Shown here: positions 2 to 25,580 of the stretch, piece by piece | Position numbering within the stretch: position 1 is the stretch's first letter | Layout: each line of letters opens with the position of its first letter | Assembly: GCA_964626935.1 (NCBI GenBank) | Contig: CAZVIU010000003.1 | Coordinates: 1 to 36,290 of the forward strand | Direction: 5' to 3' | Length of the DNA: 36,290 nucleotides | Source: an uncultured Gammaproteobacteria bacterium | GTDB lineage: Bacteria; Patescibacteriota; Patescibacteriia; CAZVIU01 | Notes under the pieces: model-generated | What the model saw: only the letters and a program-made list of their open reading frames with translations | The model's database searches: none | Told to the model about the DNA's origin: nothing | Made by a program: the position numbers and the translations under genes

Positions 2-3000
2 TCAGCAGCCGGTGCCGGAGTTGGCACAGGTCTGACTGTTTCTTTAGCTCCGGATAATCCAGGAGCTTCAACTTGGGTTGTCGACGCAGCTAATGACACT
101 GCTTCATCACAAGGTTTAGCCACAGCTTTGAAGTTACGTTTTACTGCTTCAGCTGATGGCGCTGTTAAAGTCAAAACCTTGAAGCTCAAGAGAAGCGGTA
201 TTTCTGCTGATTCTGATTTGAAATCGCTTCACTTATACAGTGATGGTGTTCCAACACCGATGACTAGACTCGCCGATTATACTTCAATTGCTTCAGGCGT
301 TGTTACCTTTAATGATGCTAACGGCTTATTCACTGTGGCAGCTGGCAAAAGCTCTGATGTTGCAGTTCGTGTAGACCTTGATCGCAATACCGCAACTGGT
401 AAAACTCTTAGGTTTTCTCTTGAGGCTGCGGCTGATGTCGCCACTGATGGCAGTGCTGTTAGCGGTTCGCTCCCATTAACAAGCGCGACTCATGAAACTG
501 CTGCGGTCAGCGATTTTGCTCGTGTGCAGGTTTCAGGCGAAACTATTCCGGCGTCAGTTGATTCTGGCACCACCAATAAAGAAGCTTTACGCTTTAATTT
601 CCAGGCAACTGGTCAAAAAGTAGAGCTCCGTGGTGTTAATTTCAAAATGGTTGGCACGGCCGGAAACGCTGACATCACCAATCTTAAACTATTTGATGGC
701 GGCACCCAGCTTGGTTCAACCGTTCTCGGGTTAGCTTCAGATGGTACAGCTTGGTTTGATCTTTCGGCCAGCCCATTAGTAGTTAGCGCTGGTGTTACCA
801 AAACTTTAACAATTAATGTTGATGTTGTTGGCGGCGTAAACCGCACCTTTGAAATGACAGTACAGAAAGAAACAGACTGGGTTATTTGGGACACCAATTA
901 TAGCGCTTATGTTTTACCAGATGATTCTAGCGCTATTGGTACTTATACAGTGCTTGAGGGGGCTTCAAATATCTCTATCAATGCTGGTACGCTCACCATG
1001 AGCAAAGCCACTGATTCACCAACTGGCGATGTTACAAGAAGTTCTACCAATATTGAAGTTGCTAGATTTGATTTCAAAGCCAGCGGTGAAGCAGTTAAGA
1101 TTGAAAATGTTTATATGTGGTGTGACGTCTCTGACATTGGCGATACTGGAACCGGCGGTTTGGATAATATGAAACTTTTAGTTGATGGCGTGCAAGTTGG
1201 CACGACCGCCGATTGTACTGAAGAGGATGAAATTAATGTTAATCTTGGTTCAGCCTTCATTATTCCGGGTAATACCACTAAGACGTTATCAGTTAAAGCT
1301 GATACATATACTGTTGCTGCTGGCGCTCATACAGCTGGCGCGGTTGTTACTGTTTCTATTCGTCGAGATGACTCTACTTCTGCTCCGGGTACAGCTCGCG
1401 GTCAAGTATCGTTATCAGCTATTACCATGACTAATGTTACTGGCAATAGTTTGACCTTTAGAACTGGCGCTGTAACATCAGCCAGCAATGTTACACTCGG
1501 CAATTATTCAGCAACAAATCCAACAGGCGTAGCTAACGCCCAAGGCGTTCGTTTGGCCTCGTTTGTTGTCACTGGTGGTCTTGGTGAAGATGCCGATGTG
1601 ACGAGAATCCGATTGCGCGATGGTACAACTAACAGCAATCTAGGTGAAGACTTCCAGAATTTAAGAGTTATCCGCCGTGACACTGGAGCACAGGTTGGTA
1701 CCACTGTTGGCGCCTTAAATACTGGCTCAACAGTTGGTAATTATACCTTTACCCCAGGAACTGCTATTCGCGTTAAAAAATCAGAACAGTTAGTCTTTGA
1801 TGTCTATGCTGATGTTTTATCAACCGTAACTAACTCGGCTACTGTTTATACCGGTCTTGACCTACTGGACGTTAGCGCTACAGGTGTAGTTACTGGCGCT
1901 GCTGCTGATGACACTACAGCCAGACCCCTGCAGCAAATTTATCTAGCCGCTTCTGGAAACTTAACCGTGACTGCTGATGCGTCTACACCAAACGCTGATA
2001 ATCTAGTACTTGCTCAGACTGGAGTAGAATTGGCTCGTTTCAGGTTTGCAGCTGACGCGGCTGAAGCAGCCAATGTTTCGCAGGTTATTACCACCTTCCA
2101 GCACAGGAATCTTGGTGGTGATGTTTCAACCAACTCTGTTACTGGTACTTGGAGAAACCTGAAAGTCTATGAAGCAGAGTCAGGCGCACTTTTGGGCACA
2201 GCCGCAACCCTGTCAACTACGAACAATACAGTGCATCCGTATGCTACTTTTGCCGGACTTTCATGGAATATTCCAAAAGGCGGAGCTAAGACCTTAGTTG
2301 TTAAAGCTGACTTATCACCATTTGATGATGGTGGTGTGGCTAGCTCAACTTGGAGAGTGGAAATTCGTGAGAATTACACATCTAACAATGCTTCCGCCCA
2401 GGCGGACGAATCAGTCGCAGCTCGCGGCGTAGGCAGTGGTTCTGATCTTACTGGTGGCAGTTTAGATATTGGCGCTGATACTGATTCAGATGTTCGTGGT
2501 TCAGTAATGGATGTATTTAAGAGCAAGCTGACCCTAGCTCACGCGTCTGATGCCCCATCAGGAGTACAATCAGCTGGCACAGAGCAGACTGTGGCTAAGT
2601 TTGTGGTTAGTAACACTTCGGCTGGTGGTTACACTGCCATGCTTGAACTTCTGAATCTGACAATTACTGCAGCTGGCGCGTCACTTACCGGAGCTAGCGC
2701 TGATGTAAATGTGTACAAGTCATCAGTGACTACAGCCAACAGGTTATCAACGACTGATGACTGTTCAGTAACACTTGGTTGTCCGGCGGGTGGAAGTTGG
2801 GCTGGAACTGCCGGAGGCAATAAGACTTCAGTTACTGATGCTAACTTTACTGACACACAAATTAGCGCCGGATCAAGTCTTACCCTCATTGTTACCATGG
2901 AGACAAATACAGCCGGCTTTAGCGCCAATGAAACCTTAACGGTTGGTGTTGGTAGTCAAGCTGCGGTTAATTTTCTTAAATGGGATGATGATGCTAATGA

Positions 3001-3067
3001 CGCAACTGGTCGAGACTACACTGTTTCAACCAGCTTGCCGCTCACAGGTAAGACCCTCATCTACTAA
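2..3067 (+). CDS. Giant repetitive Thr/Ser/Ala/Gly-rich cell-surface protein (S-layer/adhesin-like), 5' end outside window
   Basis: The frame is open from nt 2 to TAA 3065-3067, with no stop before the TTG at 128 used by the ORF track. About seven divergent 130-150 aa modules share a pattern: hAxFxFxA, then V..h.h, then NhKLh.G...hGT, then KTLxVKAD. Examples are EALRFNFQATGQKVELRGVNF..NLKLFDGGTQLGST, IEVARFDFKASGEAVKIENVY..NMKLLVDGVQVGTT, VRLASFVVTGG..NLRVIRRDTGAQVGTT, VELARFRFAADAAEA..NLKVYEAESGALLGTA and TVAKFVVSNTSAGG. The composition is beta-rich, low-charge and Cys-poor, and a strong terminator follows. Function is inferred from composition and architecture only. Confidence 0.7.
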   Translation, partial: SAAGAGVGTGLTVSLAPDNPGASTWVVDAANDTASSQGLATALKLRFTASADGAVKVKTLKLKRSGISADSDLKSLHLYSDGVPTPMTRLADYTSIASGVVTFNDANGLFTVAAGKSSDVAVRVDLDRNTATGKTLRFSLEAAADVATDGSAVSGSLPLTSATHETAAVSDFARVQVSGETIPASVDSGTTNKEALRFNFQATGQKVELRGVNFKMVGTAGNADITNLKLFDGGTQLGSTVLGLASDGTAWFDLSASPLVVSAGVTKTLTINVDVVGGVNRTFEMTVQKETDWVIWDTNYSAYVLPDDSSAIGTYTVLEGASNISINAGTLTMSKATDSPTGDVTRSSTNIEVARFDFKASGEAVKIENVYMWCDVSDIGDTGTGGLDNMKLLVDGVQVGTTADCTEEDEINVNLGSAFIIPGNTTKTLSVKADTYTVAAGAHTAGAVVTVSIRRDDSTSAPGTARGQVSLSAITMTNVTGNSLTFRTGAVTSASNVTLGNYSATNPTGVANAQGVRLASFVVTGGLGEDADVTRIRLRDGTTNSNLGEDFQNLRVIRRDTGAQVGTTVGALNTGSTVGNYTFTPGTAIRVKKSEQLVFDVYADVLSTVTNSATVYTGLDLLDVSATGVVTGAAADDTTARPLQQIYLAASGNLTVTADASTPNADNLVLAQTGVELARFRFAADAAEAANVSQVITTFQHRNLGGDVSTNSVTGTWRNLKVYEAESGALLGTAATLSTTNNTVHPYATFAGLSWNIPKGGAKTLVVKADLSPFDDGGVASSTWRVEIRENYTSNNASAQADESVAARGVGSGSDLTGGSLDIGADTDSDVRGSVMDVFKSKLTLAHASDAPSGVQSAGTEQTVAKFVVSNTSAGGYTAMLELLNLTITAAGASLTGASADVNVYKSSVTTANRLSTTDDCSVTLGCPAGGSWAGTAGGNKTSVTDANFTDTQISAGSSLTLIVTMETNTAGFSANETLTVGVGSQAAVNFLKWDDDANDATGRDYTVSTSLPLTGKTLIY

Positions 3068-3135
3068 CCAGTTAGTATGAGGTAGTCTAAAGCAGAGACC
3101 CCACTACTTGCGATAAAGGCAATAGTGCAGTCAAA

Positions 3136-3168
3136 CCCCCCCCGATGTACATCGGGGGGGTTGTTTTT
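3136..3168 (+). terminator. Rho-independent terminator after surface-protein gene
   Basis: CCCCCCCCGAT-GTAC-ATCGGGGGGG is a perfect GC-rich hairpin (3136-3160) followed by TTGTTTTT. Confidence 0.85.
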
Positions 3169-3180
3169 CAGCTGTTTTTA

Positions 3181-3386
3181 GAGCCCGAAGCACCTTGGGC
3201 GCTTCTGGTTTTATTCTTGGGCCCGAAGCACCTTGGGCGCTTCGGGCCCGGCTATAGGCTTATCTTGTTTTGATCAGTTTATCGTGTTAATATCTTTGAG
3301 TCGGTTTGGTTATGAGCCCGAAGCGTCTTGGGCGTTTCGGATTTGGTTATATTTTCGGCCCGAAGCGCCCAAGGCGCTTCGGGCCC
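3181..3386. repeat. Four copies of palindromic REP-like element GCCCGAAGCRC-N4-6-GCGCTTCGGGC
   Basis: Copies lie at 3181-3208, 3219-3249, 3314-3340 and 3357-3386. Full copies read GGGCCCGAAGCACCTTGGGCGCTTCGGGCCC and are followed by a conserved RGCTAYNNGCT tail. Confidence 0.9.
3265..3293 (+). promoter_or_regulatory. Putative sigma70-type promoter for the first Wzy_C-TPR gene
   Basis: TTGTTT (3265-3270), a 17-nt spacer ending in TGT (extended -10), then TAATAT (3288-3293). This is a pattern match only. It would place REP copies 3 and 4 in the 5' UTR. Confidence 0.25.
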
Positions 3387-3392
3387 AGCTAT

Positions 3393-5744
3393 ATGCTAAA
3401 ATTTATTCGTAATCTTTTCTTATTTTCACCACTGATTTTTTTCGCTTACACGCCGTGGACTTTATATCCGGCGATCTTTGGCCGGACGATCATTTTTCAG
3501 ATCATTGTTGAAGTGATATTAGTTATAGTTATACTTGCTAATTTATTTGGGCGATCGTTAACCGGCGGAGAATTAGGAATTAAGCCCCGACGTAAAGCCC
3601 CGATATCTAAGATACAGGCTGCCGATCATAGTATCGGCACCCAAAGCGCTATTAGGAGCGCTTCGGGCTTTGTTTTGGGCCCGAAGCGCCTTGAGCGCTT
3701 CGGGCCCAGCTACTGGCTTCTCGGGATCCCAACCGAAGCGTCGGGAAATTATGAATTATGGGGACGAGCTAAGGAGATATTTTTTTCACCAATTGGGGCG
3801 AGCCTAATAATTTTTACTCTAGTTCAGTTTGTTTCTTATCTCTTTTCAGTTGATCAAGAGGCAAGCTTTTGGGGAAGTATGTCGCGAATGGATGGCATAT
3901 TTAGCTGGCTGCATATGGCAGCGCTTTTCTTTTTATTAGTTGCATTTTTGGATAAATCTGCCTGGTCCAAATTTTTAAAAATTAATGTTGTCATCGCTGG
4001 GGTCCTAAGTATTTTAGCCGTGATTCAGCATTTTTACGACCCTGTTCCTAAATATATAATTCAATCCGGTCGAGTTTATGCCACTTTTGGCAACCCAGTG
4101 TTTTTTGCCCTGTATTTATTGTTCACGATTTTTCTTACATTATATTTTTTATTGGGAGTTGAAACGAAACAAACATTGAGCCCGAAGCGCTATTATGAGC
4201 GCTTCGGGCTCAACAGACGACGCGTTGCGAAATATTTTTTTATCGGAATGCTCGCGATTTTACAAATAGTCGCGCTTTTTTGGACTGGGAGTCAGGGAGC
4301 AATTGGAGGATTTTTGGTTGGGATTTTGGTTCTTAGTTTAATAGGATTAATAAGGCAGTTCACTACCCCAGAGGTGGCGGCCACGCAAAGAATTAAGTTA
4401 GTGAGACTCATGGGAATTATAGGTATCGTCGGACTCATAAGTTTCATGGGTTTTTTCAAATTAGGTTTGGGGCAATTCGTTCGGTTACGCGAGCTTTCTT
4501 CAGTTGAAGGATTAGAAGCCCGAACAACTGTTTGGAAAATGGGTTTACAAGGATTTAAGGAACGGCCGATTTTGGGATTTGGCCCGTCAACTTTTGAATA
4601 CGTTTTTGATAAATATTATAATCCTGAACTTTTGCGGCACTCTTTTTACGAAACCGTTTCTAACAAGCCGCATAATATTTTTGTGGAAACGCTTGATCAT
4701 TTGGGGACTTTGGGATTTTTAAGTTATTTAGGTATATTTACCGCCGCCATCCTTGTTTTGCGAAAAATTAGAAAAATAGATTTTAAATTAGCTGTTATTG
4801 GTTTCGGACTTTTAGTCGCCTATCTTGGGGCCTTGCAATTTTCTTTTGATACAACTAATTCGTGGTATATGTTTGTGGTATTTTTGGCCTATATAACAGC
4901 AAGAGAACAAGAGAACAAGAGAACAAGAGAACAAGAGAACAGCGGGACTCTGTATCAGTCCGGTGGCCAGCCGATGGATACAAGACGGGCATCAAAACAT
5001 AAAAATAAACTTGTTTTCATGTTTTCATGTTTTAATGTTTTAGTGATAGCGGCGGCATTGTGGTTTGGCAACATTGAAGCTTGGGCGGCATCGGTACCCG
5101 GAGCCAGATCAAAAAATAAGTATTGGTTTCAAAAACCAATTAAGTGGGCCAATGAAGTTAGGAAAGCTATTGACGGGCCAAGTCCATATCATGATGAAAT
5201 TCGCGTAATTTTCGCGCAAGACTTGATCAAGTGGGAGGCGGGCGGCAATCTGCCAATGGTTGAGATTCAAGATCAAGTTAGTTTACTTAGGAGCAAGCTA
5301 GAAGAGAGCGCGAGTCAACACCCAAGTAATTTTCAATATCGTTTTACTTCGGCACAAATACAAGGCATTGAGGCAGAGAATTTTGACATGGCTAGATTAG
5401 GTGAAGCCATCAATTCCGCGCGTCAAGCGCGAGACTTATCACCGCGTCGTCAAGCGGCCTATTTAATTTTAGGCAAGCTTTTGCTTCAAAATGGAGATTT
5501 AAGAAGCGCCGAAGAGTTTGCGAATAAAGCGGTTGAGTTATATAAATTTGCCCCAGAATCGCACTGGTTTTTGGGCATAATCAAAAGCGCTGAAGAAAGA
5601 CTAGATGAAGCTGTTGCCGAATTCAGGCTGGCTCGTGAACTTGGCTACGATTTTAAGCCGCAAGAGATAATTTATTGGATGAGTATTAATAAAAAACGTG
5701 ATAGGGCGGAAGAGAATGATGAGCTAAGGTTGCTGCTTCAGTAA
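3393..5744 (+). CDS. O-antigen-ligase-family (Wzy_C) polytopic membrane protein with C-terminal TPR domain, paralog 1 (carries in-frame repeat insertions)
   Basis: The N-terminus MLKFIRNLFLFSPLIFFAYTPWTLYP aligns with paralogs 2-4. Shared motifs are SVDQEASFWGSMSRMDG, GNPVFFALYL, TGSQGA and ILGFGPSTFEYVFDKYYNPELLRHSFYETVSNKPHNIFVETL. The C-terminal TPR-like helices carry LSPRRQ and ESHWFLG. The ORF is open back to 3306 only because two REP copies are stop-free, so ATG 3393 is preferred. Confidence 0.8.
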   Translation: MLKFIRNLFLFSPLIFFAYTPWTLYPAIFGRTIIFQIIVEVILVIVILANLFGRSLTGGELGIKPRRKAPISKIQAADHSIGTQSAIRSASGFVLGPKRLERFGPSYWLLGIPTEASGNYELWGRAKEIFFSPIGASLIIFTLVQFVSYLFSVDQEASFWGSMSRMDGIFSWLHMAALFFLLVAFLDKSAWSKFLKINVVIAGVLSILAVIQHFYDPVPKYIIQSGRVYATFGNPVFFALYLLFTIFLTLYFLLGVETKQTLSPKRYYERFGLNRRRVAKYFFIGMLAILQIVALFWTGSQGAIGGFLVGILVLSLIGLIRQFTTPEVAATQRIKLVRLMGIIGIVGLISFMGFFKLGLGQFVRLRELSSVEGLEARTTVWKMGLQGFKERPILGFGPSTFEYVFDKYYNPELLRHSFYETVSNKPHNIFVETLDHLGTLGFLSYLGIFTAAILVLRKIRKIDFKLAVIGFGLLVAYLGALQFSFDTTNSWYMFVVFLAYITAREQENKRTREQENSGTLYQSGGQPMDTRRASKHKNKLVFMFSCFNVLVIAAALWFGNIEAWAASVPGARSKNKYWFQKPIKWANEVRKAIDGPSPYHDEIRVIFAQDLIKWEAGGNLPMVEIQDQVSLLRSKLEESASQHPSNFQYRFTSAQIQGIEAENFDMARLGEAINSARQARDLSPRRQAAYLILGKLLLQNGDLRSAEEFANKAVELYKFAPESHWFLGIIKSAEERLDEAVAEFRLARELGYDFKPQEIIYWMSINKKRDRAEENDELRLLLQ
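3644..3707. repeat. REP-like palindromes (one partial, one full copy) inside paralog-1 CDS
   Basis: 3644-3669 is AAGCGCTATTAGGAGCGCTTCGGGC (partial). 3677-3707 is GGGCCCGAAGCGCCTTGAGCGCTTCGGGCCC (full). They are translated in-frame as ..SAIRSASGFVLGPKRLERFGPSYW. Confidence 0.9.
4178..4211. repeat. REP-like palindrome inside paralog-1 CDS
   Basis: GAGCCCGAAGCGCTATTATGAGCGCTTCGGGCTC is read in-frame as LSPKRYYERFGL, in a loop that is shorter in paralogs 2-4. Confidence 0.9.
4901..4940 (+). repeat. Perfect octamer array (AAGAGAAC)x5 inside CDS
   Basis: This is a direct read of five exact units, translated REQENKRTREQEN. Confidence 0.95.
5013..5042 (+). repeat. Octamer array GTTTTCAT/GTTTTAAT x3.7 inside CDS
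   Basis: GTTTTCAT GTTTTCAT GTTTTAAT GTTTTA is translated FMFSCFNVL. The same array type occurs at 31392-31424 and, reverse-complemented, at 25549-25580. Confidence 0.9.
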
Positions 5745-5786
5745 AAATAAGCCATGGATTAATTGCGAATTGCAGTTTTCAGATTG

Positions 5787-5828
5787 CAAATTATAAATCT
5801 GAAATTTTAAATCATAAATTTGAAATTA
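5787..5828 (+). repeat. Heptamer array (NAAATYN)x6 abutting start codon of paralog 2
   Basis: CAAATTA TAAATCT GAAATTT TAAATCA TAAATTT GAAATTA ends 3 nt before ATG 5832. Confidence 0.8.
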
Positions 5829-5831
5829 TTT

Positions 5832-8054
5832 ATGTCTTTAGAAAAAGTGTGTTTTAAAATTTTGCGTCTTGGTGTTTATGCGAGCCTGGTCGCGCCTTTT
5901 TTTGTATTTCCGTGGACAATTTATCCGTATCTTTATGCCAAGGCATTATACATTAATATTATTGTAGCTGTAATGCTGCCATTTTACGTAGTTTTATTAA
6001 CCACAAATCCGGATTTTCGACCTAAAAAAAATCCCCCAACTATTGCCGTAATAGCATTTTTTCTTATCTTAATAGTTTCTAGTATTTTTAGTCCTGATCC
6101 GGGGCGGGCTTTTTGGGGAACACAAGAAAGATCAGCCGGACTATTTTTTCTGGCGCATTACTTCTTATTATTTTTAATCGCCAGCTCTATTTTTCGTAAC
6201 GAGGAGAGCTGGAAGAAACTTTTAATATTTTCTCTTTTTATAAGCATACTTGTCGCTGGCGGAACTTGGTGGGATATTGCCATGGAAAAAATCTGGAAGC
6301 CCGGAGCAGGGACAAGAACTGGCGGCACCTTGTCTAACCCTATTTTTTATGCCGCCTATCTCTTATTTCACATCCCCCCATCCCTTTGGTTAAGTTTCTC
6401 GGGTCGTAAAAAGGCGCATAAAATTGCTTGGCTGGCCGTTTTTATTTTTCTTAGTATTTCTTTGTTTTATACGCTTACTCGTGGCGCCCTACTTGGTTAC
6501 TTTGGTATGTTTTTCTTTGGTTTAATTTTAACTGGCTTATGTGTACAGAGATACCGAAAATGGATGTTTTTAGCTTCTAGTTTGATAGTAGTTTTTTTTG
6601 CCTTGATTTTTTTATTACGAACCAACCCGGTAATTTTAAAAAATCCGATATTAGGACGCCTCGCTTCGATTTCGCCCAAAGAAATAACCGCCCTAACCCG
6701 GCTAGAAGCTTGGCAAATTGCTTGGTATGGCTTTAAAGAAAAACCGATTTTAGGCTGGGGGCCGGAAAATTATTACGCTATTTTTAATAAATTTTATAAT
6801 CCAAAACTCTTGCGTTTTTCATATTATGAAACCTGGTCTGATAAACCGCACAGCATTGTTTTTGAAATTTTATCAACAACTGGTTTTTTGGGTCTAGCGG
6901 CTTATCTTGCGATCTATGGGTTGATCCTTGCTCATGGTTTTAAAAAATTGCGTAAAAAAACCATATCGGCAAAATTAACCATTCCGCTTTTAATGATTTT
7001 TGTCGGGTTTTTTATACAAAATCTTTTTGGTATTGATACAGTGAGTACCTACCTGATGTTTTATATCTTATTGGCTTTTGCCGGGTTTATTTTATATCCT
7101 ACAAATACTATAAGTCCCGTGAGTTTTGTAAGATCCGTAAACCCGATAGGAAATGTAAAACGTCCGGTAATTCTTGCCGGTATTGCAACAAGCATTCTTT
7201 CTCTTGTTTCAATCTGGCAATGGAACATCAAACCTGCTTACGCAGGCCATCTTACAGCCAAAGCAACAACCGTGGAGAATTTTGGTGCGGCTACGGATCT
7301 TTGGCAAAAAGCGTTAGATATTAAACATCCGTGGGCTTACGATGCCCAAGTTGAATACTTAAAAGGCATCACGAGAATAGTTCAGCGATCAGCAAATACG
7401 CAGTTTGAAGACTTAAAACCACTTCTCTTGCGCGGCGAGATGGCGGCAGAAGACCTAACAGCCAGTCACAAGCAAAATGCCTATTTTAATTATTTAGCCG
7501 GTAGATTTTATAGTGAATGGGGCAAGTTTGAATTTAAATATTTTGTTGAAGCAGAAAAATTATTTAAAAAATCTATTGAATTGAGCCCGCGTCGTCAGCA
7601 GCTTTTTTATGGTTTGGGTAGAATGTATTTGCTTTCCGGAAGAACTGACCAATCCTTAAAAGTATTTGAAGATTTAGTTAAGCTTGATCCCGGGGTTGAT
7701 GAATCTCACTGGTTTTATGGTTTGGCCCTGCGTCAAGCTGATCGCGGAGTCCAAGCCTACGAAGAGATAAAAGAGGCCATTCGTTTAGGATACAATGCGG
7801 TTGATTCAGGAGAGGTATTAGTTTTAGCCGAAGTAGCCACAAAAGAAAATGACCTCAAGGCGCTTCAAAAAATTTATGAAAACGCGATTGCCATTGATCC
7901 TAAGAATGGTGATTGGCACGCCCGGTTGGCGGCGTTGTATTTAGAATTGGGAAGAAAGGATGAGGCGCGCAAATTAGTTATCAGGGCAGTAGAGTTGGAC
8001 CCGACGCTTAAAGAAGAAGCAACCAAATTTTTGAAATTATTAGAAATTCAGTAG
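5832..8054 (+). CDS. Wzy_C (O-antigen-ligase family) membrane protein with C-terminal TPR domain, paralog 2
   Basis: Motifs are SPDPGRAFWGTQERSAG, TRGALLG and ILGWGPENYYAIFNKFYNPKLLRFSYYETWSDKPHSIVFEIL, with about 10-12 hydrophobic helices. TPR motifs are ELSPRRQQLFYGLGRMYLLSGR and DPKNGDWHARLAALYLELGRKDEARKLVIRAVELDP. ATG 5832 is preferred over the track's TTG 5820. Confidence 0.85.
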   Translation: MSLEKVCFKILRLGVYASLVAPFFVFPWTIYPYLYAKALYINIIVAVMLPFYVVLLTTNPDFRPKKNPPTIAVIAFFLILIVSSIFSPDPGRAFWGTQERSAGLFFLAHYFLLFLIASSIFRNEESWKKLLIFSLFISILVAGGTWWDIAMEKIWKPGAGTRTGGTLSNPIFYAAYLLFHIPPSLWLSFSGRKKAHKIAWLAVFIFLSISLFYTLTRGALLGYFGMFFFGLILTGLCVQRYRKWMFLASSLIVVFFALIFLLRTNPVILKNPILGRLASISPKEITALTRLEAWQIAWYGFKEKPILGWGPENYYAIFNKFYNPKLLRFSYYETWSDKPHSIVFEILSTTGFLGLAAYLAIYGLILAHGFKKLRKKTISAKLTIPLLMIFVGFFIQNLFGIDTVSTYLMFYILLAFAGFILYPTNTISPVSFVRSVNPIGNVKRPVILAGIATSILSLVSIWQWNIKPAYAGHLTAKATTVENFGAATDLWQKALDIKHPWAYDAQVEYLKGITRIVQRSANTQFEDLKPLLLRGEMAAEDLTASHKQNAYFNYLAGRFYSEWGKFEFKYFVEAEKLFKKSIELSPRRQQLFYGLGRMYLLSGRTDQSLKVFEDLVKLDPGVDESHWFYGLALRQADRGVQAYEEIKEAIRLGYNAVDSGEVLVLAEVATKENDLKALQKIYENAIAIDPKNGDWHARLAALYLELGRKDEARKLVIRAVELDPTLKEEATKFLKLLEIQ

Positions 8055-8160
8055 AAATTAGTTAGAAATTAAATAGAAATTAAGTATAAATAAATAGAAA
8101 TTAGCTCGCTCACGCTCGCGAAATTAGGTTACAACCTAATTTCTACTTAATTTCTACTTC
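8041..8160. repeat. Composite spacer element: phased TAGAAATT direct repeats, central hairpin, inverted AATTTCTA repeats
   Basis: TAGAAATT lies at 8041, 8052, 8063, 8074 and 8095 (11-nt phase, with degenerate TATAAATA at 8085). The hairpin AAATTAGGTT-AC-AACCTAATTT is at 8121-8142. AATTTCTA lies at 8138 and 8149. The array overlaps the paralog-2 stop codon TAG at 8052-8054. Confidence 0.85.
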
Positions 8161-8186
8161 GTTTCGTGAAGCTAATTTTTTTATTT

Positions 8187-10430
8187 ATGTTGGAAACCCG
8201 TCTCTTGCGATCAATTAAGATTTTATTGTACGCGGTACTTTTTGCTCCAGCCGTAGTAACTTACTCAACTGCTTATCCTTTTTTACATGGCAAGGTTTTC
8301 TGGATTGAGATATTCATAGAATTGCTGCTCGGTTTGTACTTAGTTTTAGTTTTAACCAGCAAAGATTATTGGCCAAAGAAAACGCCGCTTTTTTGGGCTA
8401 TGAGCGCGTTTATAGGCTCACTTGTTATTTCAACGATTTTTTCAGTTGATCGATCAATCAGTTTCTGGGGTGATTGGTCCCGTATGACCGGGCTTATTCT
8501 TTATCTACATCTTTTTGCATTTTTCATCATTTTTTCATCAGTTATAAAAAAAGATTATGAGCGACGCAACTATTTGATATTTTTTAGCTTACTCGGCACG
8601 GTTCTATCTATATTCGCCTGGATTCAAAGATACAATACAAAATTTTTAAAAGCAGTTTGGGTGGGTGGCCGTGTCGGTAGCACCATAGATAATCCGGCCT
8701 TTTTCGCGATTTTTTTAATATTCATAATTTTCATCAATCTCTGGTTAGCTTCTGTTGTTAGTAAAAAATACCGATTATTATTTTTTCTAAGCGCAATTTT
8801 TAATTTTCTAACCGTTTTTATTACCCAAACTAGAGGTGTTATTTTGGGTCTTTTTGCCGGAATGGCCATCTTTGCTTTTTTTAGAGTTATTAAGAGCACG
8901 CTTAAGTGGAAAATAGGCTTGGCAATATTTTTGGCATTGATCTTTGCCGCATTTATTTTTAAACCAACATATAATATTTTAACGCGCGCGCCTGGCCTTG
9001 GCAGAGTCTTAGAAAGTACCCTAATAGACTCCACCGCACAAACACGCCTCTTAACCTGGAAAATAGCAACGCGTGCCTGGCTCGCGCGACCAATTACTGG
9101 CTGGGGACACGAAGCCTTTTATGCGGCATTTAATAAATTCTATAAACCGGAATTTGTTCGTTTTTCTTTTTCTGAAACCTGGTTTGATAAAAGCCATAAT
9201 ATTTTTTTAGACCTTTTGTCAATGAACGGGCTCTTGGGTTTTTTTAGCTATATTTCTATTTTTATTTTTGGTTATATTGTAATAAGTCGAAGCAAAAAGT
9301 TGCCGATGGATTCGACGAGCTCGCCACAAGTGGTTACACAAAATAATGCATATATTAACAAATCACTAGTGCCACTTTATATCTCGCTAATTACGACCTA
9401 TTTCGTTGGAAATTTTTTTGAGTTTGATACGCCGGCCTCGCTTTTAGCCATATTTTTTATATTTGCCCTGATTTATTCATATAGCAACACAAATGATGCG
9501 AATGAGGCACGTTTGACGCCAGCGCAAATTGGGCGGCCAATACAGCCGTCAGTTGTCGCCCTCATCATTATAATTATCAGCATATTGTTATGGTTTGTGC
9601 CGATTAAAAGCGTTATTGCTTCCCGCGGTCTTGATCGCGCCAGTGACCTAATAAGAAATAATTTTGCCCAAGGCGCCAGCGCTTATCGCGAAATAATTGT
9701 AAAAAATAGGCGTTTTTCCGAGCCAGCAGCTCTGGAATACGCCATGCGCCTAAATCAGCTTTTATTAACTGATGACGAGGCCGTAATTAAATATAAAAAC
9801 GACTTTGATTTGACCATGAATAAACTTGAGGATAGCGCGAGGCGCCATAAATTTGATGTAAATTACGTTCTGGCCTATAGTCTTTTAGCCAATACCAGAG
9901 CCACAATGGAAACTGATTTTGCCAAAAAGGCTGAAAAATTATTAGAAGAAAATCGCTTGATGATTAATCCAGGTCGTCAGCAGGTTCTTCTCATGCTTGG
10001 AGAGACAAAACTATTATTAGACAAAAACGATGAAGCGATAAATATTTTAAAACAAGCGCAAGACTTGGCGCCAACTGCCCGTGAAATTAGTTATCGACTA
10101 GCCATTGTTTATTTTGCTAGTGGACTTGAAGAAGAAGGATTCGCGCAACTTAAGAAAGCCAAAATTTTAGGCATGGCTGATATCGGCGCGCAGCCGCTCT
10201 TAGTTTTAATAAGTGTAAACGCTTCCAGGGGTAATTGGGTAAAAGTCGCGGAACTTTACGAAAAATCTGTTAAGCTTGAGCCGAATAATGCCAAACTCTT
10301 TGCCCAAATGGCCACAGCTTATGCTACAATCGGGAATAAGAAACGAGCCCGAGAAGCTGTGGCGCGCGCTGTAGAACTTGACCCGAAATTGAAAGGAGAA
10401 GGAGAACAATTTTTAAGACAAGTTAAATAA
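8187..10430 (+). CDS. Wzy_C (O-antigen-ligase family) membrane protein with C-terminal TPR domain, paralog 3
   Basis: Motifs are SVDRSISFWGDWSRMTG, TRGVILG and ITGWGHEAFYAAFNKFYKPEFVRFSFSETWFDKSHNIFLDLL. The TPR motif is LEPNNAKLFAQMATAYATIGNKKRAREAVARAVELDP. ATG 8187 (MLETRLLRSIKILLYAV) aligns with the paralog N-termini. The track starts at GTG 8166. Confidence 0.85.
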   Translation: MLETRLLRSIKILLYAVLFAPAVVTYSTAYPFLHGKVFWIEIFIELLLGLYLVLVLTSKDYWPKKTPLFWAMSAFIGSLVISTIFSVDRSISFWGDWSRMTGLILYLHLFAFFIIFSSVIKKDYERRNYLIFFSLLGTVLSIFAWIQRYNTKFLKAVWVGGRVGSTIDNPAFFAIFLIFIIFINLWLASVVSKKYRLLFFLSAIFNFLTVFITQTRGVILGLFAGMAIFAFFRVIKSTLKWKIGLAIFLALIFAAFIFKPTYNILTRAPGLGRVLESTLIDSTAQTRLLTWKIATRAWLARPITGWGHEAFYAAFNKFYKPEFVRFSFSETWFDKSHNIFLDLLSMNGLLGFFSYISIFIFGYIVISRSKKLPMDSTSSPQVVTQNNAYINKSLVPLYISLITTYFVGNFFEFDTPASLLAIFFIFALIYSYSNTNDANEARLTPAQIGRPIQPSVVALIIIIISILLWFVPIKSVIASRGLDRASDLIRNNFAQGASAYREIIVKNRRFSEPAALEYAMRLNQLLLTDDEAVIKYKNDFDLTMNKLEDSARRHKFDVNYVLAYSLLANTRATMETDFAKKAEKLLEENRLMINPGRQQVLLMLGETKLLLDKNDEAINILKQAQDLAPTAREISYRLAIVYFASGLEEEGFAQLKKAKILGMADIGAQPLLVLISVNASRGNWVKVAELYEKSVKLEPNNAKLFAQMATAYATIGNKKRAREAVARAVELDPKLKGEGEQFLRQVK

Positions 10431-10440
10431 AAACTTAATT

Positions 10441-10553
10441 GAAATTCGGTGGAAATTTGATAGAAATTATCCCCATCTAAATCCTCCCCCTGCGATACAG
10501 GGGGAGGAAGTAGGAGAGGGTTAATTTCAACTGAATTTCGCGCAGTGAATTTC
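10441..10553. repeat. Composite spacer element: phased GAAATT repeats, GC hairpin, inverted AATTTC repeats
   Basis: GAAATT lies at 10441, 10452 and 10463 (11-nt phase). The hairpin CCTCCCCCTG-CGATA-CAGGGGGAGG is at 10483-10507. AATTTC lies at 10523, 10534 and 10548. The architecture matches 8041-8160. Confidence 0.85.
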
Positions 10554-10569
10554 TATTGAATCTCCGACA

Positions 10570-12786
10570 GTGAGTACCGAAAAACTATCAAAATATCTTT
10601 ACAGATTCATAGTTATTGGTCTGTATGCGGCATTACTCATGCCCTTTATTTATATTGATAATCTTATTTTTCCATTTATCACCGGAAAGGTTTTTATTTT
10701 TCAAATTTTGATTGAAGTCTTATTGGCAGCTTGTTTGCTCCTGATTTATTTAGACAGAAGTTTCCTGCCTAAACAGAGCCTTGTTCTCATCTCGGTTTTT
10801 TTATTTTTAATAAGCATAATTTTATCAACAATTTTTTCATATGACCCTGATCGCAGTTTCTGGGGTAATTATGAACGAATGAGCGGAACATTCACACTTC
10901 TGCATTTTGTCGCTTATTTTTTCATACTCGTTGGTATTTTACGCACGCCGCTTACCTGGAAACGGTATCTTACAGCCGCTGTAGCGCTCTCCGGAGTACA
11001 GGCGGTTATTGGTATAGCGCAATACTATTCTACGAATTTACTTTTAACAGCTGGTGGCGGAAGAATTTGGGGCACGCTGGGTAATTATATCTATTTAGCT
11101 ACTTATGCGATTTTTCACATTTTTATTGGCGCGATGCTTTTGGCGGAAGCAGGCAACAAATCGCCATCCAGTAAGAGCAAGTGGTCAAGGGTGGTTTTTG
11201 GCGGATTGATCTTCTTAAATGTGGTTGTGCTTTATCTCTCGGGCACGCGAGGCGGATATGTTGGTTTTTTATCAGGCTTGAGTTTGGTTGCTATTATTTC
11301 TGTTTTTGTAGCCAAAAATAAGAAAGTAAAATTAATTTTTATCAGCGCCCTCATTCTGGTAATTCTCTTCATGGTTATGGGGCGTGTTTATCGCAGCACT
11401 AAATTTGCGCGGAGCCTTCCCATTGTTGGGCCGCTTTTAAATTTAGACATTAAAGCCGATACTGGTTTTACTCGTTTGATCGGTTGGCAATTAGCCCTAA
11501 AGGGTTGGCAAGATAAACCAATTTTCGGTTGGGGACCAGAAAATTACTATTACGCCTTTAATAAGCATTTCGATCCTAGATCACTTGAAAGAGGGTATTA
11601 TGAAACTTGGTTTGATCGGCCGCACAATATAGTCTTTGATGTTTTATCTACCCAAGGGTTAGTCGGGCTCTTAACTTATCTAAGTATTTTTGTAAGTATT
11701 TTTATAGTTTCTTGGCGCGCTTGGCGACAAAAAATAATTTTAGGGTGGCAATTTGCCCTGTCCTTAGGGGGCGTGGGAGCATACTTTACACAAAATCTTT
11801 TCGTTTTTGATCAGCCAAGTTCTTTTCTTTTATTTTATTTGTTTATTGCTTATTTTCATTCATTGGCTGACGGAGAGCGTAAAAGTATTGAGATGGTTAA
11901 AAACGAGAATCAGAAACGTTCAAGCATTTATTTGGCGATTTTATTGGGGGTAGGGGTTTTGTGGCTGGGATATCAAAGCGTCCTAAAGCCATGGAAAGCC
12001 GGGGTTACCTCTATTGCGGCTGAAAGACTACTCACGACTGATTTTAATCAAGCTTTTGCTATATACCGGCGTGCCACCGAAATAGAAACACCATATAAAG
12101 ATGATATACAGGTTAGTTTAGCCAGAATCGTGCATGAGCGAGCCGGAACTGACGCGATCTTTATTCGCGATAATAAAGAAAAAATAGATTTTACCGTGAG
12201 CGAAGTTAAAAAATTCATTGAAATTCACCCTAACGATGTTTATCCATATATGGCCCTGGCGCAACTCTACGGACTTTTAGCCATTATTGATCCACAATAT
12301 TTTGCGCCGGCTGAAGAAGCCCTTGCCAGGGCCGCGCTTCTCTCGCCAAAACGGCAGCAGATCTATTTTGTCTGGGCCAGGTTTAAGGTCATGCAAAAAG
12401 ACTACACGCAAGCTCACGAGCTAATACAAAAAACCATAGATTTCGATCCTCAAGTTTCAGAAACTTATTGGTATCAAGCGTTAATTTATAATTCCGAAGC
12501 CAATGATGCTAAGGCCTTAGAATACATGAAAGAAGCAAGAAAAAGAGGTTATGGGTGGAAAAATACCACGGAAGCATTTTTATTCGGCAGATTGCTCGAG
12601 ATAAACAAAGATTATGATCAAATACCGCAAGTTTTAAAAGAGATCATTAGCTTAGATTCTAAGGCGGAAAACTATTATTATCTAGCCACTGCTTATCAGC
12701 GCTTGGGGAAAAACGAAGAAGCTCAAAGAGCGCTGGGAAAAGCAGTGGAGACGGACCCAAATATTTTACAAAAAATGCAAAAGTGA
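10570..12786 (+). CDS. Wzy_C (O-antigen-ligase family) membrane protein with C-terminal TPR domain, paralog 4
   Basis: Motifs are SYDPDRSFWGNYERMSG, TRGGYVG and IFGWGPENYYYAFNKHFDPRSLERGYYETWFDRPHNIVFDVL. TPR motifs are LLSPKRQQIYFVWARF, ETYWYQALIY and AENYYYLATAYQRLGKNEEAQRALGKAVETDP. The start is GTG. Confidence 0.85.
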   Translation: MSTEKLSKYLYRFIVIGLYAALLMPFIYIDNLIFPFITGKVFIFQILIEVLLAACLLLIYLDRSFLPKQSLVLISVFLFLISIILSTIFSYDPDRSFWGNYERMSGTFTLLHFVAYFFILVGILRTPLTWKRYLTAAVALSGVQAVIGIAQYYSTNLLLTAGGGRIWGTLGNYIYLATYAIFHIFIGAMLLAEAGNKSPSSKSKWSRVVFGGLIFLNVVVLYLSGTRGGYVGFLSGLSLVAIISVFVAKNKKVKLIFISALILVILFMVMGRVYRSTKFARSLPIVGPLLNLDIKADTGFTRLIGWQLALKGWQDKPIFGWGPENYYYAFNKHFDPRSLERGYYETWFDRPHNIVFDVLSTQGLVGLLTYLSIFVSIFIVSWRAWRQKIILGWQFALSLGGVGAYFTQNLFVFDQPSSFLLFYLFIAYFHSLADGERKSIEMVKNENQKRSSIYLAILLGVGVLWLGYQSVLKPWKAGVTSIAAERLLTTDFNQAFAIYRRATEIETPYKDDIQVSLARIVHERAGTDAIFIRDNKEKIDFTVSEVKKFIEIHPNDVYPYMALAQLYGLLAIIDPQYFAPAEEALARAALLSPKRQQIYFVWARFKVMQKDYTQAHELIQKTIDFDPQVSETYWYQALIYNSEANDAKALEYMKEARKRGYGWKNTTEAFLFGRLLEINKDYDQIPQVLKEIISLDSKAENYYYLATAYQRLGKNEEAQRALGKAVETDPNILQKMQK

Positions 12787-12856
12787 CATCTGTCCCCCGT
12801 AGGCGGAACATCTGACATCTGACACGGTGTTAAAAATAATATTTCAAATTGCAAAT

Positions 12857-14014
12857 TTAATATTTGTATAGCTTAACCGTTTTTATAAGCATTTTGTCAA
12901 AGTTGAATTTTTCTTGGAATTGCCTCGCGGTAGCGTGGCTTAAATTGTTGCGTAACTCTTGATTATCAATAAATTTTTTAAGAGCATTTACAATTGCCCT
13001 TGAATCAGCTGGCGGCACTAAAAGGCCGCTTGTTTCATTTTCTAACATTTCTGGTATGGCGCCCACATTTGTCGCTATAATTGGCACACCGGCTTGTATA
13101 GCTTCAAGCAAGGCATAAGGCAGACCCTCTTTTACCGAAGGGAGCACAAAGAGGTCAAAGGCCTTTAGATAGCGAGCTGCATCAGGCAGGGAGCCGATAA
13201 GATAAAAATTTTGCAATCCATAATTCTTAATTCTTAATTCTAAATTCTCGCGTTCTGGGCCAGAACCGATAATGATGAAACTTGGTTCGACCCCTTCTTT
13301 CTTAAGTACGGCTGCTGCATCAATGAGATATTCAATACCCTTGGTTTTATAAAGATTGGCGATGGTGATAATCCACAGCGGGGAATTAAGAATTGAGAAT
13401 TTAGAATTAAGCTTTGCACGCGCCTCATCGCGTGAAAGAAAACTAATTGGATTGATGCCGTGGGGGATTATGGCAAGTTTTTCCTGATCGCAGATTTTAT
13501 TTTTTAGCGCGGCGGCATAATCATATTGAGAGAGCGTAATTATTCTATCGTGAATTTTGCCAGCAACGCGCTCCATAAATACATATAGTTTTTTGCGCCA
13601 CCAAGGCAGAGGTTCGTTAAAAACCCAGCCGTGGGCAGTGTAAATTAATTTAGGTTTTAGGTTGTAGGTTGTAGGTTGTAGGAATTTTTTAGCCACTGTG
13701 CTGATGAGGCTGGCTTTGGAGCTATTTAGATGGACGATGCTGGGCTGCTCCTTTTTAAAAAATTGTGCTAGCTCAAAAATTGCCGCGATATCTTTAAGCG
13801 GATTAATTTCACGGACGAGATTTTTAAAAGTATGCGTATTAATATCCGCTTCTTTGCATTTTTGTATCAATTCCTGACTACCCTCCGCGCCAGATGCAAC
13901 AGTAATATCAAACTCATCTTTTAAGGCAGTTGCCAAATCAAAAACATAGGCTTGCGCGCCACCCCATTCGCCTTGAGTTACCACATAAATTAGCTTTAAT
14001 TTTGCTGGTTGCAT
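12857..14014 (-). CDS. GT4-family (GT-B) glycosyltransferase
   Basis: The N-terminus is KLIYVVTQGEWGGAQAYVFDLA. The C-terminal donor-binding motif is FVLPSVKEGLPYALLEAIQAGVPIIATNVGAIPEMLENETSGLLVPP (EX7E). Confidence 0.9.
   Translation of the reverse strand: MQPAKLKLIYVVTQGEWGGAQAYVFDLATALKDEFDITVASGAEGSQELIQKCKEADINTHTFKNLVREINPLKDIAAIFELAQFFKKEQPSIVHLNSSKASLISTVAKKFLQPTTYNLKPKLIYTAHGWVFNEPLPWWRKKLYVFMERVAGKIHDRIITLSQYDYAAALKNKICDQEKLAIIPHGINPISFLSRDEARAKLNSKFSILNSPLWIITIANLYKTKGIEYLIDAAAVLKKEGVEPSFIIIGSGPERENLELRIKNYGLQNFYLIGSLPDAARYLKAFDLFVLPSVKEGLPYALLEAIQAGVPIIATNVGAIPEMLENETSGLLVPPADSRAIVNALKKFIDNQELRNNLSHATARQFQEKFNFDKMLIKTVKLYKY
13221..13248. repeat. Heptamer array TAATTCT x4 inside GT4 CDS
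   Basis: TAATTCT TAATTCT TAATTCT AAATTCT is read on the minus strand as ENLELRIKNY. Confidence 0.9.
13383..13411. repeat. Heptamer array GAATTAA x4, inverted partner of 13221-13248, inside the same CDS
   Basis: GAATTAA GAATTGA GAATTTA GAATTAA G is read on the minus strand as KLNSKFSILNS. It lies 134 nt from the inverted array. Confidence 0.9.
13651..13682. repeat. Heptamer array TAGGTTK x4.6 inside GT4 CDS
   Basis: TAGGTTT TAGGTTG TAGGTTG TAGGTTG TAGG is read on the minus strand as QPTTYNLKPK. Confidence 0.9.
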
Positions 14015-14076
14015 ATAAGCATTGATCTTGATATTATAGTGTGATATAGTGGTTTATTCAAGTATCTGATTATTGA

Positions 14077-14140
14077 GCGTTTAGCGCATAGCGGTTAGCG
14101 TTTAGTTAATTGTTCTAAACCCTAAACCCTAAACCCTAGG
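14077..14140. repeat. Two heptamer arrays in divergent intergenic region
   Basis: GCGTTTA GCGCATA GCGGTTA GCGTTTA lies at 14077-14104. CTAAACC CTAAACC CTAAACC CTAGG lies at 14115-14140 and ends at the TTG start at 14141. Confidence 0.85.
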
Positions 14141-15139: not shown

Positions 15140-15220
15140 TAATTAAGTCATTGGTCACTAAGTCATTGAGACAATTTTAAATGACTGTTAATTACTTAAT
15201 TACTTAATTACTTAATGACT
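15140..15220. repeat. Inverted octamer arrays spanning the spacer between SDR and GT4 genes
   Basis: The left arm is TAATTAAGTCATT..CTAAGTCATT. The right arm is AAATGACT GTTAATTA CTTAATTA CTTAATTA CTTAATGA. CTTAATTA is the reverse complement of TAATTAAG. The element begins right after the stop codon at 15137-15139, and ATG 15215 lies in its last unit. Confidence 0.85.
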
Positions 15221-17887: not shown

Positions 17888-17926
17888 AGGTTCAGTTAGA
17901 TTGTCGCTGTTTCTACGGTGATAACT

Positions 17927-20427: not shown

Positions 20428-20628
20428 CTTGGGCGTCTCCTTTTTAGTTGTTAAGGTCCGTCATCCTGTCCCTACTATGGCACTACACACATTCAAAAGT
20501 CAATAGTGACTGATTGAGGCTAAGCGCCAATCATCTGTCTATGATGGCTTACGAAGCTCGTTCTAGTTGCATAAATTATAAATAAACATTAAGATTATTT
20601 CAGGTCATTGAAATAAGGGAGGCGCACA

Positions 20629-25557: not shown

Positions 25558-25580
25558 AAACATTAAAACATGAAAATAAT
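25549..25580. repeat. Octamer array AAAACATG x4 (reverse complement of the GTTTTCAT family) over the stop/start junction
   Basis: The array is AAAACATG AAAACATT AAAACATG AAAATAAT. It contains the asnB-like stop (25555-25557) and the ATG at 25554. Confidence 0.9.

Follow-up and report, generated by a model that had tools for sequence, protein, structure and literature searches.

Tandem Wzy_C-TPR genes beside a surface-protein gene of Patescibacteria: candidate target-linked O-oligosaccharyltransferases

The Wzy_C family is broad and includes polymerases as well as ligases, and in the pilA-tfpO and comP-pglS pairs the gene of the oligosaccharyltransferase (OTase) lies immediately downstream of the gene of its acceptor. 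All known O-OTases carry Wzy_C (PMC9829042), and in WaaL, PglS, PglL and TfpM the pyrophosphate of undecaprenyl pyrophosphate (Und-PP) is coordinated by Arg residues and a His residue is essential for catalysis (PMC12800693; PMC9829042). In PglS, 13 transmembrane (TM) helices are combined with a large C-terminal domain in the periplasm (PMC12800693). A C-terminal tetratricopeptide repeat (TPR) region is present in WsfB and PglL, the TPR-only protein WsaA adjoins WsaB, and wsfA of the Paenibacillus alvei slg locus is an asparagine synthase homologue (PMC2943079). In the Candidate Phyla Radiation (CPR, or Patescibacteria), cryo-electron microscopy has revealed a coat that resembles a surface layer (S-layer), and genome analyses state that its formation and structure "remain unclear", with "a glycosylated S-layer" offered as speculation (PMC5220378). 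Here we analyze a stretch of 36,290 nucleotides (contig CAZVIU010000003.1, positions 1 to 36,290; hereafter, the window), in which the gene of a large surface protein is followed by four genes of Wzy_C-TPR membrane proteins (W1 to W4) and by a sugar locus (Table 1). We propose, with a probability of roughly 0.55, that the Wzy_C-TPR proteins are target-linked O-OTases that glycosylate the adjacent surface protein with glycans supplied by the downstream locus.

The window (G+C about 38-46%, high coding density) holds 27 open reading frames (ORFs), that of the surface protein included, and would represent the downstream two-thirds of a module of the order ECF sigma factor, DUF5667 protein (both outside the window), wall-anchored surface protein and tandem Wzy_C-TPR proteins, joined here to a glycan-synthesis locus. 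The gene order was compared in related loci, of which L004 carries an 89%-identical orthologue of the surface protein, L005 a 45%-identical and L006/L007 a 39%-identical homologue. In L005 and L006/L007 a gene of an extracytoplasmic function (ECF) sigma factor, a gene of a single-pass DUF5667 membrane protein, the surface-protein gene and two or three Wzy_C(-TPR) genes follow one another. The Wzy_C genes of L005 are followed by the glycolysis genes gap, pgk and eno, with no sugar genes there, and in L006/L007 a TPR-only ORF of 222-224 aa precedes a 659-aa Wzy_C protein that carries no TPR. A scan with a 9-sequence alignment, made on one genome per GTDB species, gave 80 loci, nearly all from Patescibacteria or from unclassified metagenome-assembled genomes (MAGs), and their six-frame ORFs were scored against hidden Markov models (HMMs) built from the window and L004-L006. 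Of the 61 loci with at least 3 kb of downstream sequence, 30 have a Wzy_C-TPR gene immediately after the surface gene and in its orientation, and 33 have one within 10 kb downstream; upstream, such a gene was found in only 1 of 63 loci. When the 22 adjacent loci with at least 4 kb past the last Wzy_C gene were considered, no glycosyltransferase (GT) or short-chain dehydrogenase/reductase (SDR) gene was present in the fetched flanks of 13. The order surface gene to Wzy_C-TPR gene is conserved across distant CPR lineages, even without nearby sugar genes, and it is with the surface-protein gene that the Wzy_C-TPR genes keep their conserved association, rather than with a polysaccharide locus.

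The order of the paralogues is also kept. W1 is closest to the first Wzy_C gene of L008 and L005, and W2 is orthologous to the second (L008_2, L005_2); a gene identical to W4 is present on contigs L001 and L002. Judged from these similarities, the position-1 and position-2 types appear to be two ancient paralogues whose order has been maintained across lineages. Because both types are kept in order, and two further copies (W3 and W4) have been added here, different glycans or different acceptor sites are suggested for them.

The first-pass annotation of this DNA had described four Wzy_C membrane proteins, and this was borne out: W1-W4 all exceed the gathering cut-off of PF04932 (31.7 bits), and C-terminal TPR families were matched in all four. 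An N-terminal alignment with homologues places the likely starts of W1, W2 and W3 at ATG 3393, ATG 5832 and ATG 8187, so that the TTG/GTG starts given by the ORF finder are probably too early; for W4 the ORF-finder start, GTG 10570, was left as is. A profile of the membrane domain was used against the PDB (a full-length query returned mostly TPR matches), and its sole sequence relative was the WaaL of Cupriavidus metallidurans (7TPG/7TPJ; E 4.1e-11; 16% identity), with R265 and H313 of WaaL aligned with R290 and H340 (W2 numbering). In an alignment of 45 sequences R100, R217, R290, D337 and H340 were invariant and R162 nearly so, and R100, R162, R290 and H340 were invariant in a nine-sequence alignment that included all four paralogues of the window. 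The conserved residues correspond to the published Und-PP-coordinating Arg and catalytic His residues, and their invariance across 45 sequences and four paralogues argues that catalysis has been retained.

The AlphaFold2 (AF2) model of W2 (pLDDT 93.2, pTM 0.90) shows a WaaL-fold core (residues 1-421) of 12 helices with a large catalytic loop (263-341), a short linker containing K/R residues, a 13th long helix (444-480, its TM part at about 444-466) and a TPR superhelix (484-739). In a Foldseek search with this model, chain 7TPG_B was matched with E 6.9e-6 and a TMt of 0.64 over 457 columns, and WaaL was the sole membrane protein among the best 50 matches listed; the TPR part resembled the TPR structures of OGT and SPINDLY (SPY). 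Since the catalytic loop of WaaL is periplasmic and its termini are cytoplasmic, and since one extra helix is present in W2, the TPR domain should lie outside the membrane and is predicted to face outward, i.e., to be extracytoplasmic.

The closest homologues of the surface protein are 87-89% identical and 1204-1207 aa long, so that about 183 N-terminal residues are expected to fall upstream of the window. As judged from the orthologues, the full-length protein has about 1204 aa, with an N-terminal signal peptide and a wall-binding-type domain that are encoded outside the window. In orthologue P0001 (89% identical, 1204 aa) the sequence MTDALRFVRK, a 23-residue hydrophobic stretch and the boundary TAHA/ATL form a Sec-type signal, the export signal on which the initial proposal had depended, and a domain of about 140 aa follows the signal peptide. 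In many relatives PG_binding_1 (PF01471) takes the place of this N-terminal domain, which is the reason to regard it as a wall-anchoring module. Thr (13.2%), Ser (9.6%), Ala (12.4%), Gly (10%) and Val (10%) are abundant in the surface protein, which is acidic, with K+R at 6.7%, and contains four Cys residues; its Ser+Thr content reaches 22.8%, versus 7.5-13.6% across the remaining 26 proteins of the window. A repetitive, Thr/Ser-rich protein of more than 1000 aa ending at 3067 had been claimed, and whereas its size and composition were confirmed, it is repetitive only at the profile level: neither DNA repeats nor self-BLAST matches were detected in it, and an HMM of one domain recognized homologous domains of about 100 aa at residues 45-140, 189-277, 348-452, 513-616 and 672-773, with a weak sixth at 862-982, i.e., at least five homologous beta-sandwich domains. 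The AF2 model of P0008, a full-length homologue with 45% identity (pLDDT 84.5), starts with a disordered signal peptide, after which come an N-terminal domain of the alpha/beta type (45-185) and a row of beta-sandwiches, and Foldseek returned only generic strings of Ig-like domains for it (alpha-2-macroglobulin, PrgB, integrins, antigen I/II and, as a weak match, the S-layer of Nitrosopumilus, N. maritimus). No family of Pfam or NCBIfam covers the surface protein, and no SLH domain was found in it. The product of 2-3067 is accordingly a surface protein of many domains, rich in Ser/Thr, secreted and anchored in the wall, and its features would fit a putative S-layer protein. The G+C content of its gene (46.3%, versus 38.9-41.3% in the four Wzy_C-TPR genes) could stem from the Ala/Gly/Thr-rich composition or from a codon bias of high expression.

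Searched against 5.8 billion proteins, the surface protein had 224 relatives, with a typical length of about 1150-1350 aa and named members from Falkowbacteria, Parcubacteria, Kuenenbacteria and Komeilibacteria among others, and in an exhaustive HMMER scan of 1.84 billion cluster representatives the family comprised 1161 clusters at E <= 1e-3, of which 366 reached E <= 1e-30. The family, as delimited by these searches, appears to span the phylum Patescibacteria. The named homologues of the surface protein and of the Wzy_C-TPR proteins are nearly all labeled Patescibacteria/CPR, with a few generic or discordant MAG labels as exceptions, which assigns the host to this phylum and agrees with the CPR-type host that the first reading had considered. 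Lipid A/lipopolysaccharide genes (lpxC/kdsA) are reported missing from the CPR genomes studied so far (PMC5220378).

In the mechanism that we propose, GT4 and GT2 enzymes together with the dTDP-/UDP-sugar enzymes would assemble a glycan (an oligo- or polysaccharide) on the inner side of the membrane, linked to a polyprenyl-pyrophosphate carrier. Its sugars would probably be methylated deoxyhexoses, since RmlB, RmlD, a C-methyltransferase and cupins, which point to glycans containing methylated 6-deoxyhexoses, are encoded in the locus. The glycan would then be flipped outward by products of genes outside the window, and the Wzy_C-TPR proteins would move it en bloc to Ser/Thr (or Tyr) hydroxyls of the surface protein as this emerges from Sec. 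The WaaL-fold core would bind the lipid-PP-glycan through its invariant Arg residues, the invariant His would catalyze the transfer and the TPR superhelix would hold the protein acceptor. The surface protein is a plausible acceptor, given the signal peptide of its orthologue, its Ser+Thr content, its acidic character, its low Cys content and its string of beta-sandwiches. En bloc O-glycosylation of the surface protein is the best-supported role because of the linkage to the surface gene, the retained catalytic apparatus, the predicted outward TPR domain and the reported lack of lipid A in the phylum. The earlier claim that the locus glycosylates the adjacent surface protein rather than lipid A is supported, by inference, from the conserved gene order, the WaaL fold, the catalytic residues and the CPR host; the acceptor, the donor and the en bloc O-linkage are likewise inferred.

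Several points weigh against this proposal. The Wzy_C superfamily also holds polymerases and ligases that act on lipid or glycolipid acceptors. No Wzy_C_2 match at E <= 0.01 was obtained with Pfam in W1-W4, which are therefore not members of the PglL/PglS families in the narrow sense, and no curated NCBIfam family was passed by them; the best sub-threshold families were IctB (67 bits; cut-off 366) and PEP_O_lig_1, an exosortase-associated "O-glycosylation ligase" (65 bits; cut-off 188). In 31 of the 61 loci the surface gene has no directly adjacent Wzy_C gene, and when a substitute enzyme (another GT-C or TPR protein) was sought downstream of the surface gene in ten of these loci, the ten ORFs corresponded only to a subtilase, a PG_binding_1 protein, a peptidase or nothing. 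Among the 27 ORFs of the window Pfam detected no initiating phosphoglycosyl transferase, Wzx flippase, Wzm/Wzt or other ABC exporter and no RmlA; the genes of initiation and export may lie outside it, and in L006 a Glycos_transf_4 gene is found 8 kb upstream. Furthermore, the surface gene has its own terminator, as had been annotated, a GC-rich 10-bp hairpin with a T-run located after the stop codon (stem 3137-3160, 8 of the 10 pairs being GC in the terminator scan and in a direct reading of the letters), so that its co-transcription with the enzyme genes is not assured.

The alternative that survives best, which we nonetheless consider unlikely, is that the Wzy_C-TPR proteins polymerize or ligate a glycopolymer of the cell wall, such as a secondary cell-wall polymer or a teichoic-acid-like polymer. 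They would then work as the TacL lipoteichoic-acid ligase and the Wzy polymerases do, whose substrates, in cells without lipopolysaccharide, are glycans carried by polyprenyl-PP on the outer side of the membrane. The adjacency would reflect a single regulon of envelope assembly, or the polymer would be what the surface protein binds. The breadth of the Wzy_C family fits this explanation, as do the border that the four genes share with a large sugar locus in the window, the two sub-threshold NCBIfam families and the half of the surface-family loci that show no adjacency. TPR domains, moreover, are typical of polysaccharide-export scaffolds (PMC2943079, its reference 99), which also counts against O-glycosylation. 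However, the linkage to the surface gene is better conserved than that to sugar genes, as the 13 of 22 loci without GT/SDR genes and the glycolysis genes flanking L005 illustrate, and neither a Wzx flippase nor a chain-length regulator is present. In addition, adjacency was observed with the PG_binding_1 anchor, which needs no special polymer, and with the alternative N-terminal domain, and is thus independent of anchor type. PG_binding_1 forms were also found without an adjacent Wzy_C gene, and the prediction that adjacency depends on the type of wall anchor, as an anchoring polymer would require, was rejected.

Still less probable is that they are general, PglL-like O-OTases that modify many exported proteins, such as type IV pilins and wall proteins, with the surface protein as one substrate or as a mere neighbor. 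The Wzy_C core is the same, PglL also has TPRs (PMC2943079), several paralogues could serve several classes of substrate, and genes for type IV pili and for many surface proteins are present in CPR genomes (PMC5220378). The directional adjacency (30/61 downstream versus 1/63 upstream), however, resembles that of target-dedicated pairs, the order of the two paralogues follows the same target family, and Wzy_C_2 is missing. A role without transfer, as a membrane-anchored chaperone or docking factor in the secretion or lattice assembly of the surface protein or as an IctB-like transporter, would suit the protein-protein contacts that TPR domains mediate and the best NCBIfam match, IctB, far under its cut-off as it is, yet the Und-PP-binding Arg and catalytic His residues are invariant in 45 diverged sequences and in all four paralogues, and it is very improbable.

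The sugar locus (12857-36204) contains, according to Pfam, seven GT4 and three GT2 genes, RmlB, RmlD, two further SDR dehydratases/epimerases, three small cupins, an NDP-hexose C-methyltransferase, an S-adenosylmethionine (SAM) methyltransferase, an Asn-synthase homologue and a GFO/IDH/MocA oxidoreductase. In its first block the matches to Glycos_transf_1, Glyco_transf_4 and Epimerase had E values of 1e-31 to 1e-60. The first-pass annotation had counted nine glycosyltransferases and NDP-sugar enzymes, including rfbB and rfbD; RmlB and RmlD are indeed present, and the count fell short of a locus that is larger. The region 19279-21789, which interrupts the sugar genes, encodes two proteins not obviously related to glycans, a DAO-family FAD oxidoreductase and an AAA_28 P-loop protein of 382 aa (minus strand), the C-terminal half of which, about 200 aa, is uncharacterized.

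Table 1. Positions of the features of the window (sugar-locus genes by Pfam).
Feature	Position	Strand	Description
Surface-protein gene, 3′ part	2..3067	+	1021 codons plus stop; frame still open where the window begins
Intrinsic terminator of the surface-protein gene	3137..3170	+	CCCCCCCGATG-TACA-TCGGGGGGG then TTGTTTTT
W1	3393..5744	+	783 aa; position-1 type; Pfam Wzy_C 59.9 bits plus TPR; conserved R/H columns
W2	5832..8054	+	740 aa; position-2 type; Pfam Wzy_C 70.2 bits plus TPR; AF2 model
W3	8187..10430	+	747 aa; extra copy, position-2-related; Wzy_C 63.3 bits plus TPR; catalytic columns kept
W4	10570..12786	+	738 aa; extra copy, position-2-related; Wzy_C 71.2 bits plus TPR; catalytic columns kept
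GT4	12857-14014	-	First block
SDR epimerase/dehydratase	14141-15139		First block
GT4 (three genes)	15215-16495, 16573-17880, 17918-19153		First block
Small cupin	22056-22460	+	Second block
GT4	22539-23567	+	Second block
Asn-synthase homologue	23710-25557	+	Second block
SAM methyltransferase	25554-26258	+	Second block
GT4	26382-27554	+	Second block
RmlC/FdtA-like cupin	27571-27960	-	Third block
RmlB	28070-29110	-	Third block
NDP-hexose C-methyltransferase	29097-30434	-	Third block
GT2	30519-31379		Third block
RmlD	31398-32294		Third block
GT2	32298-32987		Third block
GFO/IDH/MocA oxidoreductase	32995-33966	-	Third block
UXS-like SDR	33976-35109	-	Third block
Cupin	35063-35461	-	Third block
GT2	35485-36204	-	Third block
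Palindromes	3183-3208, 3218-3249, 3313-3340, 3357-3387, 3640-3669, 3676-3708, 4179-4210		
Tandem repeats	4900-4941, 5012-5041, 13221-13248, 13383-13411, 13651-13682, 15610-15639, 16094-16126, 17012-17044		
Tandem repeats (continued)	17456-17494, 18448-18476, 18693-18729, 22738-22767, 23006-23036, 25549-25576, 31355-31424		

Three contigs that share the exact GT4 gene (L001-L003) are 99.97-99.99% identical to the window, and are fragments of the same population that end within the locus. L003 matches window 11441-14697 at 99.97% identity, whereas past 14697, midway through the SDR gene 14141-15139, its sequence (L003 1-1440) is wholly different. This marks a recombination breakpoint between strains where the sugar locus begins to border its neighbors, comparable to the swapping of O-antigen and capsule loci.

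Outside the window, the surface gene is immediately preceded by the genes of the ECF sigma factor and of the single-pass DUF5667 protein, all in one orientation, in L004 (257-1928), L005 (7834-9716) and L006 (7453-9585). The sigma factor passes the ECF superfamily model TIGR02937, with the BldN family as its best sub-threshold match, and the DUF5667 protein combines a single TM helix with a helical ectodomain. Among the 63 species loci scored upstream of the surface gene, the ECF sigma gene was found in 21 and DUF5667 in 18. The two look like a sigma/anti-sigma pair that controls the cassette.

A 9-mer, AAAGGTCGA, is strongly enriched in the 700 nt that precede the surface gene, where 30 of 77 loci carry it (36 copies; at 2112 in L004, 9891 in L005, 4826 in L008, 9726 in L011 and 9916 in L014, and in about 25 further loci). 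For comparison, in 1.46 Mb the same orientation has 17 copies elsewhere, and the opposite strand has 7. In the ABY1-like loci the 9-mer is unpaired between an outer stem, the sequence of which varies while its pairing is kept, and an inner hairpin, with RNAfold z-scores of -1.9 to -4.8, and no Rfam family matched the window or five related loci. The element may be part of a leader RNA, an ECF-type promoter element or a signal of high expression. Eleven of the 17 copies found elsewhere are located directly after the last Wzy_C gene (L034 15593-15902, L042 15645-15948 and nine other Paceibacteria-type loci). In L034 and L042, the two loci examined, the 9-mer lies about 30 nt upstream of a gene of a 91-aa HU-like DNA-binding protein, after which an ECF sigma gene and genes of two small membrane or secreted proteins are found on the opposite strand. 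A common signal of regulation or expression may serve both the surface gene and hup.

The window also carries several kinds of repeats. Perfect palindromes of about 26-31 nt, of the form GGGCCCGAAGCGC-N5-8-GCGCTTCGGGCCC, cluster between the genes just ahead of W1 and also lie in frame within W1, where they encode peptides of the PKRLERFGPSY type in two predicted cytoplasmic loops; W1 has an insertion of about 75 aa relative to all its paralogues. Shuffled sequences gave an expectation of 0 matches, and the palindromes are absent from all 87 related loci. They resemble the Rickettsia palindromic elements, which insert into coding genes. Tandem repeats of 7 or 8 nt in four to five copies (for example AAGCTAC, AAAATCA, TAATTCT and CAAGAGAA) are numerous and concentrated in W1, in the GT4 genes and at gene junctions, and the same units recur in different genes and on both strands. 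They recall the slipped-strand phase-variation tracts of glycosylation genes, and the corresponding prediction was not borne out among the three 99.97-99.99%-identical contigs from other samples, which show no indels or copy-number differences in these repeats. The region between W2 and W3 has 6.6 copies of an 11-nt unit, TAGAAATTNNN (8033-8104), and an inverted set just before W3 (8129-8165), and a shorter array of 11-nt repeats follows W3 (10428-10480). These arrays could be iteron-like protein-binding sites or signals of transcription or translation between the paralogues. Finally, an element of 64 nt with inverted termini of about 10 nt (GAGGTCGAAC...GTTCGACCTC) occurs twice in frame in the GT4 gene 15215-16495 (15365-15428 and 15652-15715; 91% identical) and looks like a miniature mobile element tolerated in a coding sequence.

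As a tentative and more doubtful extension, the family described here might supply much of the Patescibacteria with their S-layer protein or major envelope protein, and the cassette of ECF sigma factor, anti-sigma-like DUF5667 protein, surface protein and two ancient, non-redundant Wzy_C-TPR OTases might be a core envelope unit, marked by AAAGGTCGA (shared with hup), the coat of which is possibly varied by strain-level swapping of the sugar locus. The envelope of these obligate episymbionts, which make up a very large share of bacterial diversity, is poorly understood, and the locus offers testable candidates for a major surface protein, for the enzymes that glycosylate it and for an adjoining regulatory pair. 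With a gene order conserved across classes, antibodies or lectins for enrichment, the fitting of densities in cryo-electron tomography and the study of host attachment come within reach, and the compact Wzy_C-TPR enzymes could serve glycoengineering as new O-OTases.

When the locus is compared with known systems, the WaaL of C. metallidurans is both the sole sequence-related solved structure and the best fold match of the membrane domain. It differs in having 12 TM helices, no TPR and lipid A-core as acceptor, an acceptor whose synthesis CPR bacteria are reported to lack (PMC5220378). TacL and the Wzy polymerases belong to the same superfamily, but their genes lie in polymer loci and they carry no TPR, whereas here the neighbor is a protein gene. 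With TMTC1-4, OGT and SPINDLY the likeness, by analogy only, is the TPR superhelix as a module for the protein acceptor; OGT and SPY belong to the soluble GT-B enzymes and take nucleotide sugars as donors, and the TMTCs are GT-C enzymes of another family that use dolichyl-phosphate-mannose. TfpO/PilO, PglS, TfpM and PglL share the Wzy_C core with its catalytic His and Arg residues, and PglS also shares the plan of 13 TM helices and an extracytoplasmic C-terminal domain, the outward orientation being a prediction here. Unlike in the pilin O-OTases, the putative acceptor is a multidomain wall protein of about 1200 aa and not a pilin, and a TPR superhelix of about 250 aa is present; the pilin O-OTases and PglL differ in addition from W1-W4, which have no Wzy_C_2 and come from a monoderm-like CPR host.

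The slg systems of P. alvei (WsfB) and Geobacillus stearothermophilus (WsaB plus WsaA), with which W1-W4 were compared by published description, likewise have a Wzy_C O-OTase with a C-terminal TPR region or a separate TPR protein, and the split arrangement of WsaA and WsaB is seen again in L006. Both loci, furthermore, contain rml genes and many glycosyltransferases along with a methyltransferase and a homologue of Asn synthase (wsfA); the envelope is of the monoderm type, and the target is a secreted surface protein encoded nearby (PMC2943079). The slg-type gene set of the window comprises RmlB, RmlD, an RmlC-like cupin, 10 GTs, two methyltransferases, an AsnB homologue and the four Wzy_C-TPR genes. 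The differences are that the target here is unrelated to SgsE/SpaA and has no SLH domain, with PG_binding_1 or a new N-terminal anchor instead, that two to four tandem OTase paralogues directly follow the target gene, where slg has one, and that the window has no WsaP-type initiator or Wzm/Wzt exporter, while ECF sigma and DUF5667 genes are found upstream. In its logic the proposed system resembles slg-type S-layer glycosylation, and it is also akin to the acceptor-then-OTase arrangement of the pilin/TfpO pair. What sets it apart is a new, CPR-specific family of putative acceptors, ordered tandem OTase paralogues and an attached pair resembling an ECF sigma and its anti-sigma factor, outside the curated families of the PglL/PglS type; in full-text literature searches no prior description of a surface protein/Wzy_C-TPR module in CPR was found, S-layers being mentioned in passing.

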